From: a virus
Reading direction: 5' to 3' (one strand)
Virus record (IMG/VR): IMGVR_UViG_3300027714_000008
Span: 1-64,000 of that record
DNA length: 64,000 bases
The position numbers were made by a program, and so were the translations under genes. Below are positions 678 to 29,279 of this stretch, piece by piece. Numbering within the stretch: position 1 is the first letter of the stretch; every line of letters begins with the position of its first letter. The notes under the pieces were generated by a model. The model saw only the letters and a program-made list of their open reading frames with translations, did no database searches and was not told where the DNA came from.

Positions 678-707
678 GTGTATCAAAGCGAAGGAGGAGT
701 ATACTAT

Positions 708-986
708 ATGGATTTTTTATCATTAGTTGGTGACGTTGGATTTCCTATCGCTGGAGCGTTGGCGGCTGGAGGTTTTGTGTTTCTTACACTTAAATTTATC
801 CTAGCTGGTGTGACCGATTCTGTAACTACGTTAAAGAATATTATTGGATCACTAGACAATCGTGTACAAACAATGAATAACGATTTGGTAAAAATTGATG
901 CACTGTTAAGTTATGCGTTAAACGTTAAACCTAACATAGATAGAATTGCCGCTAATGAAGGTAAAGACGATGCAAGGCGTGATTAA
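708..986 (+). CDS. single-TM coiled-coil membrane protein (paralog 1)
   Basis: AAGGAGG RBS; VGFPI motif, TM helix, amphipathic tail. Confidence 0.7.
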   Translation: MDFLSLVGDVGFPIAGALAAGGFVFLTLKFILAGVTDSVTTLKNIIGSLDNRVQTMNNDLVKIDALLSYALNVKPNIDRIAANEGKDDARRD

Positions 987-1312
987 TGGAAGTTGATTTA
1001 GCACAAGCGATAGGTGAATACGGATTTCCTATTATTGCCGCAATGGGCATGGGATATTTTATTTATTTTATATGGAAGTGGGTAACAGAAACAATTGATC
1101 CTGTTGTAGGTGAGACTATGTTTACATTAATCAGATTAGTTGATCGTATTCGCATGTTAGATAATGATATGATTCGTTTGAATAGTAAATTATCAATGGT
1201 ATTAGAATATAGATCCAAGATGGACGGCGAACAACAAAAAGAACTTGATGATATGGTTAACAAGTATCAATCACGTAGTGAAGCATTTAACAGTACAGGA
1301 GATGGTAAATGA
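986..1312 (+). CDS. single-TM coiled-coil membrane protein (paralog 2)
   Basis: YGFPI motif; LVDRIRMLDNDMIRL matches LDNRVQTMNNDLVKI of the upstream ORF. Confidence 0.7.
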   Translation: MEVDLAQAIGEYGFPIIAAMGMGYFIYFIWKWVTETIDPVVGETMFTLIRLVDRIRMLDNDMIRLNSKLSMVLEYRSKMDGEQQKELDDMVNKYQSRSEAFNSTGDGK

Positions 1313-1770
1313 AAATACTAATAGCTTTAAGCACAATTTGTTTACTGACTTCTACCGAAGTTAATGCAGAACTTGTCCATAAGTTTAGTAGTCCATCTTT
1401 TAATGGTAATGGATACAGTAGTCACGTATTAAGTACAGAACAACTTATACACAATCGTAAAGAGGATGTTAAAGATAAAGCCGAGGCCGAGGCCAGACGT
1501 ATAGAAAGAGAATTAGGCAACACAACATTAAACAAATTTATTACAAACCTAGAGTCAAGAATATATGCGACGTTAAGTAAACAAATGGTAGACAGTATGT
1601 TTGCGGCATGTACAGGTGACGATTGTGCAACATCAGGAACTACTGAACTTGAAGGTAGTACAATCACTTGGGTAAAAGATAGTACCACTGGTTCAATAAC
1701 ATTGACTATATCAAACGTCGATGGAACTACTGAGATTACTATTCCCGGTGCTGGAGAATTTACGTTCTAA
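1309..1770 (+). CDS. csgF: curli assembly protein CsgF-like
   Basis: signal peptide, then ELVHKFSSPSFNGNG matching the CsgF N-terminus; lies directly before csgG. Confidence 0.8.
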   Translation: MKILIALSTICLLTSTEVNAELVHKFSSPSFNGNGYSSHVLSTEQLIHNRKEDVKDKAEAEARRIERELGNTTLNKFITNLESRIYATLSKQMVDSMFAACTGDDCATSGTTELEGSTITWVKDSTTGSITLTISNVDGTTEITIPGAGEFTF

Positions 1771-2564
1771 TGAGAATTGGTCTATTAATAATGTTGCTTT
1801 TCATGGGAGCGTGTGCAGACATAGAAGCTCCTATTAATGCTGTTCCTAAAGTGCAAGGTTCACCATTAGGAAATTCATTGCAAGATATGCCAGAGCTTGA
1901 TGGTGCTAAAATGACTATAGCAGTTTATCAATTTGCTGACAAGACAGGTCAAAGAAAGCCTGCTGACAATTCAAGTTTGTCAAGTGCAGTCACACAAGGT
2001 GGCGAAGTGTGGGTTATTAAGGCGTTACAAGATGTCGGTAACTCTACATGGTTTGAAGTAGTTGAAAGGGTCGGTCTTGATAATTTGATCAAGGAAAGAC
2101 AGTTAGTGCGTAATACAAGAGATGTTTATGAAAAGAACCTAAAGACAGGACCTACACCATTAAAGCCTATGGTGTTTGCAGGTTTAATATTAGAAGGCGG
2201 TATTGTCGGATATGATAGCAATGTTTCTACAGGTGGAACTGGTGCTAGGTATTTGGGTATCGGAATACAGACACAATACAGAGTAGATACAGTCACAATA
2301 GTTATGAGATTAGTAAGTGTTAGCACAGGTAAAGTATTACTAAGTGTAGCCACAGAAAAAACAATAGCTAGTCATAGTAATGGCGCAGATGTATTTAAGT
2401 TTTTTGATATGGGAACAAAATTAGTTGAGGCCGAATCTGGTTATAGCGTGAATGAACCAGTAAATTATGCAGTTAGAGCAGCGATTGAAGCTGGCGTTAT
2501 TGAATTGATAAACGAAGGAGCTAAGAAAGAATTCTGGAAATTCAAGGAACAAAGCAATGAATAG
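1770..2564 (+). CDS. csgG: curli secretion pore lipoprotein CsgG
   Basis: lipobox FMGAC; IAVYQFADKTGQRKP, SSAVTQG, WFEVVERVGLDNLIKERQ, EGGIVGYDSN, GARYLGIG. Confidence 0.93.
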   Translation: MRIGLLIMLLFMGACADIEAPINAVPKVQGSPLGNSLQDMPELDGAKMTIAVYQFADKTGQRKPADNSSLSSAVTQGGEVWVIKALQDVGNSTWFEVVERVGLDNLIKERQLVRNTRDVYEKNLKTGPTPLKPMVFAGLILEGGIVGYDSNVSTGGTGARYLGIGIQTQYRVDTVTIVMRLVSVSTGKVLLSVATEKTIASHSNGADVFKFFDMGTKLVEAESGYSVNEPVNYAVRAAIEAGVIELINEGAKKEFWKFKEQSNE

Positions 2565-3279
2565 ACGTTTTAAAAAATATTTTTATATAACCACTATGTT
2601 AGGTCTATTGACTAGCCCTAGCTTTAGTAACGACATTTATATCTCACAAGTAGGTGATACACTAGACTTGGATATTGTGCAAGACGGACAAAACAACGTC
2701 ATTGGTACCTCTGGTCAAGCTGTTGTACTTGGTAAGACGAGTAATGCTTCAGACAATATGACATTCAGTATTACACAAACAGGTAACACAAACACTATTG
2801 CCGCACAAATATTAGGTGCGACTTATACAGGTACTTGGACATTCACTGGTGATAACAGTGATGTCATATTACTTTGTAGTAGTGCTGCAATAGGTAACTG
2901 TGATAGTGTAACACTCAATATTGCGGCTGTAGGTGATAACCAAGACTACACAATCAAGATAGGCGAGAACGCATCTGGTGATGGTGCAACAGTAAACTTC
3001 ACAGTAACAGACGATGATAACATTATATCAACTGATATTGATGGAACAAGTGCAGTGGTTACTGTTACTATTAATGGTGCATCTAGTCTTGAAACAACTG
3101 ACAGCACATTAGATATTGATATTGCTGGTAACGGAGATAGTATAGGACACACTATTGTATTCAATGCTACAGGTCGAGGTCACGCAGTAGTTCTTAATCA
3201 AAGTGGTGTATACGATAACATGATTAATCTTACCACGAATGGTGATAATCAAGCTATCAATATCACTCAATCAGACTGA
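2557..3279 (+). CDS. secreted curlin-like beta-repeat protein
   Basis: signal peptide; NDIYISQVGD, IVQDGQNN, ITQTGNTN type I-x-Q-x-G-x-x-N repeats. Confidence 0.7.
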   Translation: MNRRFKKYFYITTMLGLLTSPSFSNDIYISQVGDTLDLDIVQDGQNNVIGTSGQAVVLGKTSNASDNMTFSITQTGNTNTIAAQILGATYTGTWTFTGDNSDVILLCSSAAIGNCDSVTLNIAAVGDNQDYTIKIGENASGDGATVNFTVTDDDNIISTDIDGTSAVVTVTINGASSLETTDSTLDIDIAGNGDSIGHTIVFNATGRGHAVVLNQSGVYDNMINLTTNGDNQAINITQSD

Positions 3280-4397
3280 TGTTGAGACTTTTATCATTAC
3301 TCATAGTAATGGCAACGCCAGTGTATGCAAACATTGGTGAGATAACTTCTGTTAATGGCAGTGGTGCTATTGAAAGAGGCGAAGATGCTATTGAAGCAGA
3401 GAAGGGCACAGGTATTGATATGCTTGATACTGCTGTTACTGCAAATGCCAATATGCGGATTAACTTTATAGACGATACAGTAGTTGACATAACACAACAT
3501 TCAAGACTTCTTATAGACGATTTTGTGTATGATCCTGCAAGTGGTAAAGGGTCTTTGGGTCTAAAGGCGACATTAGGCACTGTTCGTTATGCCAGTGGTC
3601 AGATAGCAAAGCGTAATAGACAGAACGTAAGAATTAGAACACCTTCTGCAACTATCGGTGTTCGTGGTACTGACTTTGTTATGGTCATAGATGAAATTGG
3701 TGGATCTATGATCACACTATTACCTAGCTGTGATACTGCTGGAATGTGTTATGTCGGAGAAATAACTGTCGAAACTGATGCTGGTTTTGTTTTATTAAAC
3801 CAAGCCTTTCAAGCCACAATAGCTTCCAATAGCATGAGTCCCCCAACAAAACCTTTATTATTAGACCTTGACGAATCCATGATAAATTCTTTATTGTTGT
3901 TGCGTAAAGTCAAACCATATGAAGAAGAAGTGGCAAAAATATTAAAGAAGAAAATTAAAGATGCAGACTTCTTAGGACTAGACTTCCTTCAATTCGATGG
4001 ACTAGACTATGATGCATTGACTGAGGAACTAGAAGGTATTTGGTTGACGGCATTAGATAACACTGACAGTCTATTACAAGACATGCTTATAGACATGCTA
4101 GATCAGCTTAATTCAGCTTTGATGCAATTGTTTTTAGATGAGCTTGCCACACAGAACTCGTCTATGTTGAGAAGAGAACAAAATGTGTACGGATTTGATC
4201 CTACGACTGGTATTACTTTAATGAACCAAAGCCCTAACTGGGTGTTTTCAAGACGTGACGACAACGGAAATAACTTTGTAGAGTTAACTTTAAATCAAGG
4301 ATATGGATATACCATAGACCTAAAACAAGGAGGCTGGGAATTGTATGACTATAGGTTGGGCGACAACACTGGTAATTCTATTAACATTACCCAATAG
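3279..4397 (+). CDS. FecR-domain protein
   Basis: signal peptide; D.AVTAN, FIDDT.V.ITQHSRL.ID, IRTPSATIGVRGTDF. Confidence 0.85.
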   Translation: MLRLLSLLIVMATPVYANIGEITSVNGSGAIERGEDAIEAEKGTGIDMLDTAVTANANMRINFIDDTVVDITQHSRLLIDDFVYDPASGKGSLGLKATLGTVRYASGQIAKRNRQNVRIRTPSATIGVRGTDFVMVIDEIGGSMITLLPSCDTAGMCYVGEITVETDAGFVLLNQAFQATIASNSMSPPTKPLLLDLDESMINSLLLLRKVKPYEEEVAKILKKKIKDADFLGLDFLQFDGLDYDALTEELEGIWLTALDNTDSLLQDMLIDMLDQLNSALMQLFLDELATQNSSMLRREQNVYGFDPTTGITLMNQSPNWVFSRRDDNGNNFVELTLNQGYGYTIDLKQGGWELYDYRLGDNTGNSINITQ

Positions 4398-4764
4398 CCT
4401 TTGGGCTAACGAACTGATATTAAGCCAAGTCGGTAATGACTTTACGTTGAATGTCGATCAAGATGGTAATAATCACAGTATCACATTCGATGTTGATGGT
4501 AATAATAATACTGCAAATATCACACAAACAGGTGCAGACAAAACTATGATCTTAGATTTTGAAGGCAATCCACACAACTTTAATGGCACTCAAACTGGTA
4601 GTGGCAACCATTATGTCTATATAGATATTAATACACCCAATAATCGTGGCACTGCACAAATAAATTCTACTCAAACAGGAAGCACAAGTCAAAGCTACAC
4701 TATTACAGGTACTTGCTCTAGTTATAATGGGTGTGCTTTGAATGTGACTCAAACAGGTAATTGA
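4345..4764 (+). CDS. second curlin-like protein (CsgB/CsgA-like)
   Basis: signal peptide; SQVGN, DQDGNNH, TQTGAD, TQTGSGN repeats. Confidence 0.65.
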   Translation: MTIGWATTLVILLTLPNSLWANELILSQVGNDFTLNVDQDGNNHSITFDVDGNNNTANITQTGADKTMILDFEGNPHNFNGTQTGSGNHYVYIDINTPNNRGTAQINSTQTGSTSQSYTITGTCSSYNGCALNVTQTGN

Positions 4765-4765
4765 T

Positions 4766-6802
4766 ATGAAAAAACTATTAAGTCCTTGGTGGGCATTAAT
4801 CACTCTTATGGCATTAGTTTATATATTTGCTGTACCATCTAGCTTTGTTCAGAGTGTTAAACTAAACTACTTTGACACGCTTATAGTCAACCAAGAGCCT
4901 GTGCAAAACAATATATTCGTTGCAGAGATAGACGAAGCCACATTAGACAAGTACGGACAATATCCTTTCCCACGTAAAATATATGGCGATATAATAAGAG
5001 ACTTATATGATAGAGGTGCTGGACTTGTCGTATGGAATATTATGATGCCAGAAGAAGATCGCTTTGGTGGTGACGATTATATGGCAGATGTCATGCTAGA
5101 ACTGCCAGTCGTATTGCCTAGTAGACCTAGTAATAAAACAAAGAACGAGCCTATTAATCCAGGGGCGGCTATCATTAATGCTGATTACCTTGATGTGTTA
5201 TTACCTTATGGTGGCATTATTGCAAACGTTCCTGTTATAGAATATGCATCTGTTGGTGCTGGTATTGTATCTACAGAACCAGAAATTGATGGTGTAGTAA
5301 GGCGTATGTCCACAGTAGCAGTTGTTGATGGTACGTTATATCCAAGCCTTGCTTTAGAGACGTTACGTGTTCTTGCTGGAGATACAAACTTTCAGATTAA
5401 GTTACAACCCAATGGTGTAGAGAAAATGAGAATACCAAAATTTGGTATTATTCCTACTGATAATGAGGGTCGTGTATGGATTGATTGGAGTCAAAAAAGC
5501 CAGAATGTATCCATAGCAGATCTTCCTGATAATTTTAATGGTGCTATTGTTATTGTAGATGTGACTGCATCGGGTATATCTAATCCAATACCAACGGCTT
5601 CAGGCAGTGTATTTGCTGGTGAAACACAAGCGGCGGTATTGGGAACGATGATAGCGGGCACAAACATCAATAGACCAGACTGGGCTACGTCAGTGGAGCT
5701 AATTTGCCTTCTAGTGGGGTCTTTACTGCTTATTATTCTAAGTCGTTGGATGATAATAGGTTTAATAACAACGTTTATTCTTATTGGGTCTATTGTGCCA
5801 TACTCTATGTACGCCTATGCGACAGACAAGATATTAATAGATGTAAGCGCACCTGTTATAACATTTGTTATAATAGCTTTGCAAGTTTATGGTATTAAGT
5901 TTGTTCGTGAGTTCCTAGAGAAACAAGCGATTAAAAAACAGTTTGCTGGCTACGCTTCTAAAGAAGTTGTGGAGATACTACAAAAAAACCCATCTCTTAT
6001 TAAAGATGGTACTAAGAAAGAAGTTTCTATATGCTTCTCAGATCTACGTGGATTTACACCTTTAGGAGAATCATTTGGTGATAACGTAAAAGGACTAACA
6101 TTGATTATGAATAGTTACATGGATGCTATTACAAAACCTGTGCTTGAAGCCAATGGTATGATTATTAAATATATTGGTGACGCTTCAATGCATATTCATA
6201 ATGCGCCTATGGAAGATCCTAATCACCCTAAAACTGCCGTACAAACAGGACTAAACATGTTAAAAGCAGTGGAGAAGTTTAATGAGTATATTATATCCGA
6301 AGGGAGACCGCCTGTGGGTATGGGTGCTGGTATCAATACTGGTCTCGGTTACATTGGAGAAATGGGATCGACAGCCAGACACTCCTACGACATTCTTGGA
6401 GATGCTGTTAGCACCGCCGCAAGACTTGAATCCGCATGTAAAGGTTATGGAGTTGTATTGATTGTAGGACCTGCAACATACAAAGTCACCAAGGACGATT
6501 TCTTTTATTTAAAACTAGATGATTTAGCAGTGAAGGGTAAGACTGTAGGACTAGAAATATATACAGTCTTTGATGACATTAAAACACATTACAAGAAAAG
6601 TAAAAAGATGCACAACATAATGCATGAGCATTATCGTGCACAAGAATTTGACGATGCACTCAGTATGTGCCACACTTTACAAAAGCATTTTGACGAAAGA
6701 ATGGATGGCTATTATGAAATGTGGATTGAACGATGTGAGTTTATGAAAACACAGAAACTACCAAAAGACTGGGATGGAATTTTCGTCGCCACTACTAAAT
6801 AA
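4766..6802 (+). CDS. CHASE2-domain class III adenylate/guanylate cyclase
   Basis: IDEATLDKYGQYPFPR, DGVVRR and YPSLALE (CHASE2); 3 TM helices; FSDLRGFT, KYIGDA, GINTG, ARLES. Confidence 0.92.
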   Translation: MKKLLSPWWALITLMALVYIFAVPSSFVQSVKLNYFDTLIVNQEPVQNNIFVAEIDEATLDKYGQYPFPRKIYGDIIRDLYDRGAGLVVWNIMMPEEDRFGGDDYMADVMLELPVVLPSRPSNKTKNEPINPGAAIINADYLDVLLPYGGIIANVPVIEYASVGAGIVSTEPEIDGVVRRMSTVAVVDGTLYPSLALETLRVLAGDTNFQIKLQPNGVEKMRIPKFGIIPTDNEGRVWIDWSQKSQNVSIADLPDNFNGAIVIVDVTASGISNPIPTASGSVFAGETQAAVLGTMIAGTNINRPDWATSVELICLLVGSLLLIILSRWMIIGLITTFILIGSIVPYSMYAYATDKILIDVSAPVITFVIIALQVYGIKFVREFLEKQAIKKQFAGYASKEVVEILQKNPSLIKDGTKKEVSICFSDLRGFTPLGESFGDNVKGLTLIMNSYMDAITKPVLEANGMIIKYIGDASMHIHNAPMEDPNHPKTAVQTGLNMLKAVEKFNEYIISEGRPPVGMGAGINTGLGYIGEMGSTARHSYDILGDAVSTAARLESACKGYGVVLIVGPATYKVTKDDFFYLKLDDLAVKGKTVGLEIYTVFDDIKTHYKKSKKMHNIMHEHYRAQEFDDALSMCHTLQKHFDERMDGYYEMWIERCEFMKTQKLPKDWDGIFVATTK

Positions 6803-6810
6803 GGAAAGAA

Positions 6811-7533
6811 ATGGAAAATATTAAACGAAGCCACGAAATGGCTATAATTGCTAAAGTTGCATACGAAGATAAGGCTAAAGCAAAAGCAGTATTCGAGGCA
6901 ATGGGATATAGCAAACATGAGTTCATTGAACATAATGGAGCGCAGTGCCACGTCGTATGGAACGATGAAGAAGTAATCATTGGATTTCGTGGAACTGAGC
7001 CTGATGAATTTTCAGATATTAAAGCAGACCTTAACGCTATACCAAAAAAATGGGAAGCTGGTGGTTTGGTTCACAAAGGATTTTGCAATGAGCTAGACAA
7101 GGTTTGGACACAACTATCTTTGGTATTAAAAAAAGAACTGAAAGATCGTAAACTCTTTATCACAGGTCACTCATTGGGTGCGGCTATGGCAACCTTGGCG
7201 GCAAGTAAACTAGAGAAATCCTGTACTTGCCTATACACATACGGAAGTCCTAAAGCTGGGAGTAGAAGTTTTGTTAAGTCTATCGACGTACTACATTACC
7301 GCTTTGTTAATAATAACGACGTTGTGGCAAAAGTACCATTTTCGTTTCTTGGATACAGACACCACGGAGAACTACGTTACATAAACTACTATGGTAACAT
7401 AAGAAAGATGACTAAATGGCAAAGAGTCAAAGACCAATTCAGAGGTCGGTGGCGTGCTATAAAGAAATGGCAAATGTTCGATGGTGCTTATGACCATGGG
7501 ATGGATAATTATAAAAAATATTTAGGAAAATAA
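6811..7533 (+). CDS. lipase class 3
   Basis: FRGTE, VHKGF, ITGHSLGAA, YTYGSP, NNNDVV. Confidence 0.9.
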   Translation: MENIKRSHEMAIIAKVAYEDKAKAKAVFEAMGYSKHEFIEHNGAQCHVVWNDEEVIIGFRGTEPDEFSDIKADLNAIPKKWEAGGLVHKGFCNELDKVWTQLSLVLKKELKDRKLFITGHSLGAAMATLAASKLEKSCTCLYTYGSPKAGSRSFVKSIDVLHYRFVNNNDVVAKVPFSFLGYRHHGELRYINYYGNIRKMTKWQRVKDQFRGRWRAIKKWQMFDGAYDHGMDNYKKYLGK

Positions 7534-7536
7534 AAA

Positions 7537-7998
7537 ATGTATGAATATAGATCTACCATTAATAAAATAATAGACGGAGATACAGTCGATGTTGACATTG
7601 ATTTGGGATTTGGTGTTGTACTTTCGAATGAGCGTGTTCGTATTATGGGTATTGATACACCTGAAAGTCGAACTAGTGATAAAGTCGAAAAAGTATTTGG
7701 TCTTGCCGCAAAATACAGATTGAAAGAGCTATTGGGTGCTAAACCAATTCTTAAGACTGTGATGACTAAAAAGGGAGAAGATATGAAGGGTAAGTTTGGT
7801 CGTATCCTAGGAGACTTCCTCACAGATGATGGTGTGCGAATTACACAAATAATGATTGACGAAGGCCATGCCGTACCATATACAGGTCAGAATAAAGATG
7901 ATGTACTAGAACTACACATGATTAATAGAAAAAGACTAATAAGCGAAGGGGTAGTTGACGAGCAAGCAGTTCTTTACGCTGCATCATTTAATAAATGA
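7537..7998 (+). CDS. staphylococcal nuclease-like (SNase) protein
   Basis: IDGDTVDVDIDLGF, RVRIMGIDTPE, GKFGRILG. Confidence 0.88.
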   Translation: MYEYRSTINKIIDGDTVDVDIDLGFGVVLSNERVRIMGIDTPESRTSDKVEKVFGLAAKYRLKELLGAKPILKTVMTKKGEDMKGKFGRILGDFLTDDGVRITQIMIDEGHAVPYTGQNKDDVLELHMINRKRLISEGVVDEQAVLYAASFNK

Positions 7999-29229: not shown

Positions 29230-29279
29230 AATATAAATAATTTGTAAGTGTAAGTCAATTAGAGCGGTATGTAAACTCT

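Follow-up and report, generated by a model that had tools for sequence, protein, structure and literature searches.

Why a marine phage should encode a curli secretion pore next to a receptor-type cyclase is the question raised by the DNA analysed here, the first 64,000 nucleotides (positions 1 to 64,000; this whole stretch is called the window) of IMG/VR virus record IMGVR_UViG_3300027714_000008, a record of 98.7 kb. The window belongs to a T4-like myophage, with genes for DNA polymerase, helicases, major head protein, portal, sheath and terminase present. Within its first 7 kb, genes for the curli channel (csgF and csgG), two curlin-like subunits (cur1 and cur2), a FecR-fold protein and a CHASE2 cyclase follow one another. 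This gene block is already known: it corresponds to the viral type VIII secretion (curli) module that has been published for T4-like marine phages with hosts of the SAR11/OM43 type. From its promoter boxes and packing it looks like a late operon of eight core genes, and the idea that these genes build an envelope sensor linked to the curli pore is considered plausible, a shade short of probable.

The curli, FecR and cyclase genes lie in what looks like one late operon

An earlier reading of this DNA from its letters alone (the sequence-only reading) had listed csgF, csgG, curlin-like, FecR, curlin-like and CHASE2 cyclase genes in succession and had proposed that they form a trans-envelope signalling system. 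All six open reading frames (ORFs; 1309-6802) were found intact on the + strand, and the gene set was borne out by Pfam, hhalign and AlphaFold2 (AF2) model matches:

1309-1770, + strand: CsgF homologue (Pfam E-value 1.5e-11) with a signal peptide and a conserved N-terminal F-x-F-x-(N/S)-P-x-F-x-G motif
1770-2564, + strand: CsgG lipoprotein, the outer-membrane channel (Pfam E-value 3.9e-54)
2557-3279, + strand: cur1, a predicted secreted curlin-like beta-solenoid of 240 amino acids with a conserved Cys pair
3279-4397, + strand: FecR-fold protein of 372 amino acids, exported (signal peptide), with a FecR domain (PF04773, E-value 3.5e-8)
4345-4764, + strand: cur2, 139 amino acids, matching Curlin_rpt (E-value 8e-7) and the CsgB model (E-value 3.5e-7), with a C-x5-GC C-terminus
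4766-6802, + strand: receptor cyclase with CHASE2 (E-value 6.1e-32) and Guanylate_cyc (E-value 1.3e-16) domains

The tight packing from csgF to the cyclase gene described earlier was also confirmed: the junctions of the block are overlaps of 1-8 nucleotides, the FecR-fold gene and cur2 overlap by 53 nucleotides, and a gap of 1 nucleotide separates cur2 from the cyclase gene. The start of the unit had to be moved. Its true head lies at about 708, where two further genes, tmA and tmB, stand behind promoter boxes:

658-665 and 670-677, + strand: late-promoter boxes of the T4 type, TATAAATA, upstream of a GAAGGAGG ribosome-binding site and ATG 708
708-986, + strand: tmA, a single-pass membrane protein of 92 amino acids with a GFPI motif, a transmembrane (TM) helix and a coiled coil; phrog_18771
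986-1312, + strand: tmB, a tmA paralogue of 108 amino acids with a GFPI motif, one TM helix and a coiled coil

The listed tmA ORF opens at GTG 678; ATG 708 is the likely start because homologue alignment and the ribosome-binding site both point there. The window holds 18 copies of TATAAATA against 8.2 expected, and the next one on the + strand after the 658/670 pair is at 29232. Since the TATAAATA pair and a strong ribosome-binding site precede ATG 708 and the next box is that distant, the block looks like one late transcription unit, with tmA, tmB, csgF, csgG, cur1, the FecR-fold gene, cur2 and the CHASE2 cyclase gene as its core. PHROGs families were matched by CsgF, CsgG, the FecR-fold protein, the cyclase, tmA and tmB; cur1 and cur2 matched no PHROG.

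The same six genes in the same order were found in Methylophilales phage Melnitz (MZ577097; annotated) and Pelagibacter phage HTVC008M (KC465899). tmA is 83% identical to its Melnitz counterpart; for CsgF, CsgG, cur1, the FecR-fold protein and the cyclase the identity is 46-54%. When phage records were searched with the DNA of the region by megablast, no match was obtained, and relatives were recovered by protein-level search only. As the sequence-only reading had stated, csgF and csgG were reported before in marine myoviruses: a CsgF/CsgG cluster in pelagimyophages, in a region called hypervariable (Zaragoza-Solas et al. 2020, PMC7029224), and curli genes discussed for Melnitz (Buchholz et al. 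2022, PMC9004378). CsgF, CsgG, CsgA/B, FecR, a second CsgA/B and an adenylate cyclase were described in pelagiphage podo- and myoviruses, and the viral curli module was detected at all 65 GOV2 ocean virome stations and also in metatranscriptomes (Wittmers et al. 2022, PMC9599517). CHASE2 is not mentioned for viral curli in these three papers (PMC9599517, PMC7029224, PMC9004378), which interpret FecR as a regulator of iron.

Linkage is kept across viral loci

Relatives of the FecR-fold protein were encoded on 548 viral contigs, and in the best 80 of the 548 the order tmA, tmB, CsgF, CsgG, cur1, FecR, cur2, cyclase was nearly invariant. Linkage was counted in 30 unique viral loci whose flanks measured no less than 3.5 kb on the upstream side and 4.5 kb on the downstream side. 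tmA, tmB, CsgF, CsgG and cur1 were present in all 30 loci, and cur2 and the cyclase in 29 of 30 each. The cyclase gene lay downstream in 24 loci; it had moved upstream in the other five, keeping its strand in 2 and being inverted in 3, and was always adjacent when moved. Linkage that outlasts rearrangement argues for function over a frozen order, and the synteny check thus upholds the conserved gene linkage on which the earlier proposal depended.

These counts bear on one alternative, namely that the curli genes and the FecR and cyclase genes are unrelated cargo of a variable island. The description of the region as hypervariable (PMC7029224) speaks for such cargo, but co-occurrence in 29-30 of 30 loci nearly refutes it, the reading frame of the FecR gene overlaps those of the curlin genes on either side of it, and the block was transferred as a unit between podo- and myoviruses (PMC9599517). 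The chance that the genes are mere neighbours is taken to be close to nil.

The CHASE2 cyclase and its FecR partnership in bacteria

Hydropathy and Pfam matches lay the cyclase out as a first TM helix, a periplasmic CHASE2 domain, about three TM helices at residues 305-380, a class III domain at 416-600 and a C-terminal helical extension. This topology, with a periplasmic sensor and a cytoplasmic cyclase, favours the signalling idea of the sequence-only reading. Its closest solved relative is Pseudomonas aeruginosa CyaB. The two metal-binding Asp residues, the Lys and the Arg are conserved in 43 phage cyclases, and the window enzyme keeps D426, K468, D472, D542 and the Arg.

That FecR and CHASE2 genes are neighbours in bacteria, another statement of the sequence-only reading, was found to hold in genomes and in published work alike. 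A CHASE2 cyclase gene lies within ~1.2 kb after a FecR-domain gene in five genomes of Thalassospira and in several further Alphaproteobacteria, and these cyclases align with nearly the whole phage cyclase at 28-30% identity; the enzyme of Thalassospira locus L116 aligns to phage cyclase residues 5-677 at 30% identity. In Thalassospira mesophila a TPR protein gene comes first, then the FecR gene and the CHASE2 cyclase gene, and curli genes are lacking. CHASE2 was present in 13 of 61 sampled Pelagibacteraceae (SAR11) genomes and a FecR-domain homologue in exactly those 13, with the two at most 5 kb apart in 11. A trio of CHASE2-SpoIIE phosphatase, a protein of ~440 amino acids and a FecR-domain protein was seen in the three SAR11 genomes examined:

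L097:6410-11368: SAR11 trio locus
L145:549-5419: SAR11 trio locus
L146:878-5606: SAR11 trio locus

The ~440-amino-acid protein was DUF2860/SlipAM-like in one case, and type IV pilin genes adjoin the trio in two of the three loci. In Sinorhizobium meliloti, SMc02177 is a FecR-domain protein, and its gene is presumably a neighbour of cyaD1.

Published systems point in the same direction. CHASE2 is a feature of every Campylobacterota cyclase, and clustered with these cyclases are a phosphodiesterase, a TPR protein and an outer-membrane protein with a FecR domain (PMC9239204); in Burkholderia a LysM-FecR gene adjoins a CHASE2 kinase gene in an operon (PMC5192318). The S. meliloti CHASE2 adenylate cyclases CyaK/CyaD1/D2 answer an external protein via the outer-membrane receptor NsrA (PMC7529298, PMC13001267), and CyaD1 turns constitutive once CHASE2 is deleted (PMC5498481).

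The FecR-fold protein

In the AF2 model of the FecR-fold protein (pLDDT 69.7), a beta domain (residues ~20-195) and a 7-strand domain (305-372) are predicted with confidence, and the helical linker between them (200-302) with low confidence. Residues 47-207 matched the PupR cell-surface signalling domain (6ovk; Z 15.4, root-mean-square deviation (rmsd) 2.7, 135 aligned), and residues 16-110 superposed on the anchoring domain of the RTX adhesin MpIBP (5ix9; Z 10.3, rmsd 2.3, 73/76 residues, 25% identity); these whole-model structure searches hardly cover the C-terminal domain. The PupR signalling domain and the RTX-adhesin anchoring domain both dock at outer-membrane proteins. A sequence search of the PDB gave no match to the FecR-fold protein. 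Longer sequence relatives of the FecR-fold domain, of 1100-1750 amino acids, combine FecR with cadherin and RTX repeats, the architecture of type I secretion system adhesins; HemolysinCabind was not matched by Pfam in the 372-amino-acid protein.

No Pfam domain besides FecR was found in the protein, and no anti-sigma domain or TM helix precedes the FecR domain. Because it has a signal peptide and no anti-sigma part, the protein is not a FecR anti-sigma factor. No extracytoplasmic function (ECF) sigma factor and no TonB-dependent transducer was present among the neighbouring genes by Pfam and PHROGs, no genome-wide search having been made.

The C-terminus of the protein, G-x-G-x-N-x-I-x-I-x-Q, is kept in all homologues. 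As a separate observation, this motif stretch is dual-coded with the cur2 signal peptide: at 4345-4397 the last 17 FecR-fold codons overlap the cur2 signal-peptide codons out of frame. A FecR/cur2 overlap is annotated in Melnitz and HTVC008M as well (29 nucleotides).

The CsgF-CsgG channel and the curlin-like subunits

CsgG aligned with E. coli CsgG over its full length (E-value 2.5e-52), with the lipobox Cys aligned; its NCBIfam CsgG score of 195 bits is under the equivalog cut-off of 505. At the constriction (CsgG residues ~62-73), Y51, N55 and F56 of E. coli are replaced by A, S and L, and the loop differs in length and sequence among phage copies. A PDB sequence search with CsgF gave no match. 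CsgE (PF10627) was not found in this record or 4 large relatives, and the E. coli control genome was matched.

The missing CsgE gate and the constriction residues, which are smaller than those of E. coli and variable, favour another idea, taken from PMC7029224 and PMC9599517, in which an ungated CsgG pore admits nutrients or cofactors and the FecR-fold protein is tied to iron uptake. This idea is considered highly improbable. The signal peptide of the FecR-fold protein and its lack of an anti-sigma or TM part count against it, its closest long relatives are RTX adhesins and not iron regulators, and the curlin genes are left unexplained.

cur1 is curlin-like, judged from its family alignment and predicted fold. 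The protein itself had no Pfam match; Curlin_rpt was matched by 14 of 35 cur1 orthologues, and the cur1 family aligned with the cur2 family by hhalign (Prob 99.7, E-value 2.9e-26). AF2 models cur1 as an all-beta solenoid whose rungs are ~22-25 residues long (pLDDT 80.5, pTM 0.76). The top match of this model among 48,161 PDB representatives was Pontibacter korlensis CsgA (8c50; Z 18.3, rmsd 8.7, 193 aligned, 19% identity), and SufBD-type beta-helices came near it with Z 15.7-17.2, i.e. within 1-3 Z units. A Foldseek search with the model returned nothing significant; the CsgA match came from the wide VIA search. What bears on putative amyloid fibre formation by the subunits is the predicted beta-solenoid and the CsgA-like fold of the model. 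The lengths of cur2 orthologues ranged from 139 to 506 amino acids, and the window copy is the shortest seen.

A complete pore with two curlin-like subunits could by itself be a fibre factory, which would make curli-like fibres on the infected cell, either to aggregate cells ("sibling capture") or to fend off other phages, with the FecR-fold protein as a secretion accessory or anchor replacing CsgE/CsgB functions and the cyclase as a separate, host-manipulating traveller. CsgE was not found in the five phage records, the FecR gene is always between both curlin genes in the best 80 of 548 viral contigs, podoviruses carry FecR more universally than the cyclase, and aggregation and exclusion were put forward for viral curli (PMC9599517, PMC7029224). 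Against fibres alone stand the adjacency of the cyclase in 29 of 30 loci despite rearrangement, the bacterial FecR-CHASE2 pairing, which is independent of curli, and the finding that no clumping was seen in Melnitz-infected cells (Buchholz et al., PMC9004378). Fibre production without a sensor is judged unlikely, and it is the competitor to be taken most seriously.

An envelope sensor linked to the curli pore is plausible

The reading preferred here, an envelope sensor linked to the curli pore, is supported because the linkage is conserved, FecR and CHASE2 are partners in bacteria, and NsrA provides an outer-membrane precedent for CHASE2 signalling. In such a sensor, CsgG and CsgF would give the infected cell an outer-membrane channel, through which the beta-solenoid subunits cur1 and cur2 would leave. 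The exported FecR-fold protein would dock at or under the outer-membrane apparatus and pair with the periplasmic CHASE2 domain of the cyclase, so that the state of the pore or fibre would set cytoplasmic cyclic-nucleotide synthesis late in infection. We infer the physical contacts, the sensed cue, the nucleotide made, its receptor and its effect.

A more specific version is also conceivable, in which the FecR-fold protein acts as a LapA-like retention module on CsgG. Its N-domain would be a periplasmic plug or anchor, the linker and C-terminal strand would hold or seed the curlin fibre, and the CHASE2 cyclase would read the plug, giving an envelope-spanning contact or load sensor that signals late via a cyclic nucleotide and a receptor of a novel kind. 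With this amount of detail the model is rather improbable. A receptor of an unfamiliar kind would be expected because the phage and most SAR11 genomes are without a cNMP-binding domain.

Several observations weigh against an envelope sensor. The first concerns catalysis. In the window cyclase the transition-state Asn is replaced by Ser (A-V-S-T-A-A-R; residues 542-557, window 6391-6438). Of 44 aligned phage cyclases, 34 have this Ser; Asn is retained in the remaining 10, as it is in the Thalassospira enzyme. Two subtypes are thereby distinguished: in the first (window, Melnitz and most others) the Lys is paired with Asp and Ser replaces Asn, and in the second (HTVC008M and nine other phage copies, also the Thalassospira enzyme) the Lys is paired with Ser/Thr and Asn is kept. 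Because Ser replaces the transition-state Asn, cyclase activity and product are only putative in the window subtype.

The second concerns the receiver of the signal. Searches for a cNMP_binding domain gave no match in this record, in Melnitz and HTVC008M or in three large relatives from IMG/VR, and the domain was present in just 2 of the 61 Pelagibacteraceae genomes. Class III cyclases were not found in two SAR11 genomes. The lack of the domain in the phages and its rarity in SAR11 weigh, though not decisively, against a simple cyclic AMP (cAMP)-CRP output. The trans-envelope signalling proposed by the sequence-only reading is thus upheld in part, gaining from the linkage, the bacterial FecR-CHASE2 pairs and the NsrA precedent and losing from the lack of a cNMP receptor domain. 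The outside events that it named as possible cues, contact and superinfection, are conjectural.

The lack of clumping in Melnitz-infected cells has to be counted here as well. Podovirus versions of the module exist, some of them without a cyclase (Wittmers et al., PMC9599517), which suggests that the FecR-fold protein may act independently of the cyclase. The FecR-fold C-terminal domain was considered as a curlin repeat and rejected, as hhalign against both curlin families gave Prob 3.6 and 1.5, neither significant; the likeness of the tail to curlins is a short motif, with only the last strand resembling the first strand of the curlins.

Co-variation can be read in two ways. In 44 cassettes, the pairwise divergences of CsgF, CsgG, both FecR domains and CHASE2 were mutually correlated. 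Within the larger cyclase subtype, rho was 0.71-0.90 among CsgF, CsgG, FecR and CHASE2, 0.18-0.48 between these and cur1, tmA or the catalytic domain, and 0.34 between CHASE2 and its own cyclase domain. This pattern fits what would be expected of a periplasmic complex, and it could equally reflect similar evolutionary rates, not contact.

If an envelope sensor is present, the phage would be a rare virus that installs its own outside-to-inside signalling path, and an undescribed cyclic-nucleotide receptor would be indicated. If fibres are the sole product, aggregation and sinking of infected cells would change. Both readings are testable in the cultured phages Melnitz and HTVC008M.

Membrane proteins at the operon head and genes downstream

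Ten closely packed + strand ORFs extend over 678-7998, the last two of them downstream of the cyclase gene:

6811-7533, + strand: class 3 lipase (Pfam), no signal peptide, after an 8-nucleotide gap from the cyclase gene
7537-7998, + strand: staphylococcal-nuclease-like endonuclease (Pfam), no signal peptide, after a 3-nucleotide gap from the lipase gene

The lipase and nuclease genes appear to lie in the same late operon, yet their linkage is looser (13 and 11 of the 30 loci, respectively). tmA and tmB had no Pfam, NCBIfam, PDB or Atlas relatives other than viral hypotheticals and represent a virus-only family. A histidine kinase identity for tmA/tmB found no support, with no kinase domain and no Pfam, NCBIfam or PDB match. 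Co-variation of tmA and tmB with the cyclase domain was discarded as evidence: rho was 0.62 and 0.53 in the full set and fell to 0.27 and 0.32 within one subtype.

The surroundings of the block raise the alternative that it times lysis, as put forward for Melnitz (PMC9004378). CsgG-CsgF would be a gated hole (pinholin- or secretin-like), and the FecR-CHASE2 cyclase, perhaps with tmA/tmB, would time its opening or lysis, like T4 lysis inhibition. A late promoter directly upstream of the block, two small holin-sized membrane proteins at the operon head and a lipase and nuclease transcribed in the same direction are in keeping with such a role. CsgG, however, is in the outer membrane and so has no means of depolarising the inner one, no holin or spanin family was matched by tmA or tmB, and two conserved secreted beta-solenoid proteins would be left unexplained. 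A lysis timer is accordingly regarded as improbable.

Copies in metagenome-assembled genomes

The phage-type cassette, whole or ended by a contig edge, was also observed at eight loci (L084-L091) in metagenome-assembled genomes (MAGs) that represent species in GTDB, and in part at a further locus (L094). The bins of these nine loci were Rhodobacteraceae, Legionellales, Pirellulales, Polynucleobacter, Pelagibacter, Flavobacteriaceae, Luteolibacter and Rickettsiales. A T4-like capsid gene was present in all three MAGs examined (Luteolibacter L091, Legionellales L085 and Rickettsiales L094), so the cassette contigs are probably mis-binned phage. The L084-L091 cassettes were left out of the bacterial copy counts.

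A different arrangement was seen in an Alphaproteobacteria MAG (L092:9009-11820, GC content ~45-53%), where cytochrome c genes adjoin a set of three: a curlin-like gene, a FecR-fold gene and another curlin-like gene. The product of its FecR-fold gene shares 37% identity over residues 5-302. No CsgG or CHASE2 was found on the L092 contig and no T4-like capsid in its MAG; a 2.4-kb stretch upstream of the three genes is without a long ORF. The three genes of L092 could represent a cellular relative of the core formed by curlin, FecR and curlin genes.

Comparison with known systems

FecI-FecR-FecA signalling has the periplasmic FecR fold in common with the phage protein, which is without the cytoplasmic anti-sigma domain and TM helix. 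With RTX adhesins (MpIBP 5ix9, LapA type) it shares the fold of the N-terminal retention (anchoring) module; unlike them, it lacks RTX repeats and cadherin domains, and the channel next to it is CsgG and not one of the TolC type.

Bacterial CHASE2 cyclase loci resemble the phage block in that a periplasmic FecR-domain protein is encoded beside a CHASE2 class III cyclase. The bacterial loci contain a TPR protein and no curli genes, whereas the phage FecR-fold protein is short (372 amino acids) and lies among curli genes. The output of bacterial CHASE2 cyclases goes to the CRP-type regulator Clr, whereas cNMP_binding was not found in the phage, nor in most SAR11 genomes. In S. meliloti, an outer-membrane component is required for CHASE2 signalling (PMC7529298).

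The likeness to the E. coli curli system (csgBAC, csgDEFG) lies in a full-length CsgG, the N-terminal CsgG-binding motif of CsgF and the curlin repeats. The phage block differs in that CsgE was not found, the constriction residues Y/N/F are changed to A/S/L, and FecR, cyclase, tmA and tmB are added.

The closest likeness is to viral curli. With Melnitz, the window shares the gene set, the gene order and a T4-like marine myophage genome. Where the viral curli papers place a "histidine kinase" upstream of csgF, the window holds tmA/tmB, a comparison made by position only. As in the viral curli module of Wittmers et al. 2022, the CsgF, CsgG and curlin genes are clustered, and FecR stands after cur1, followed by cur2 and the cyclase.

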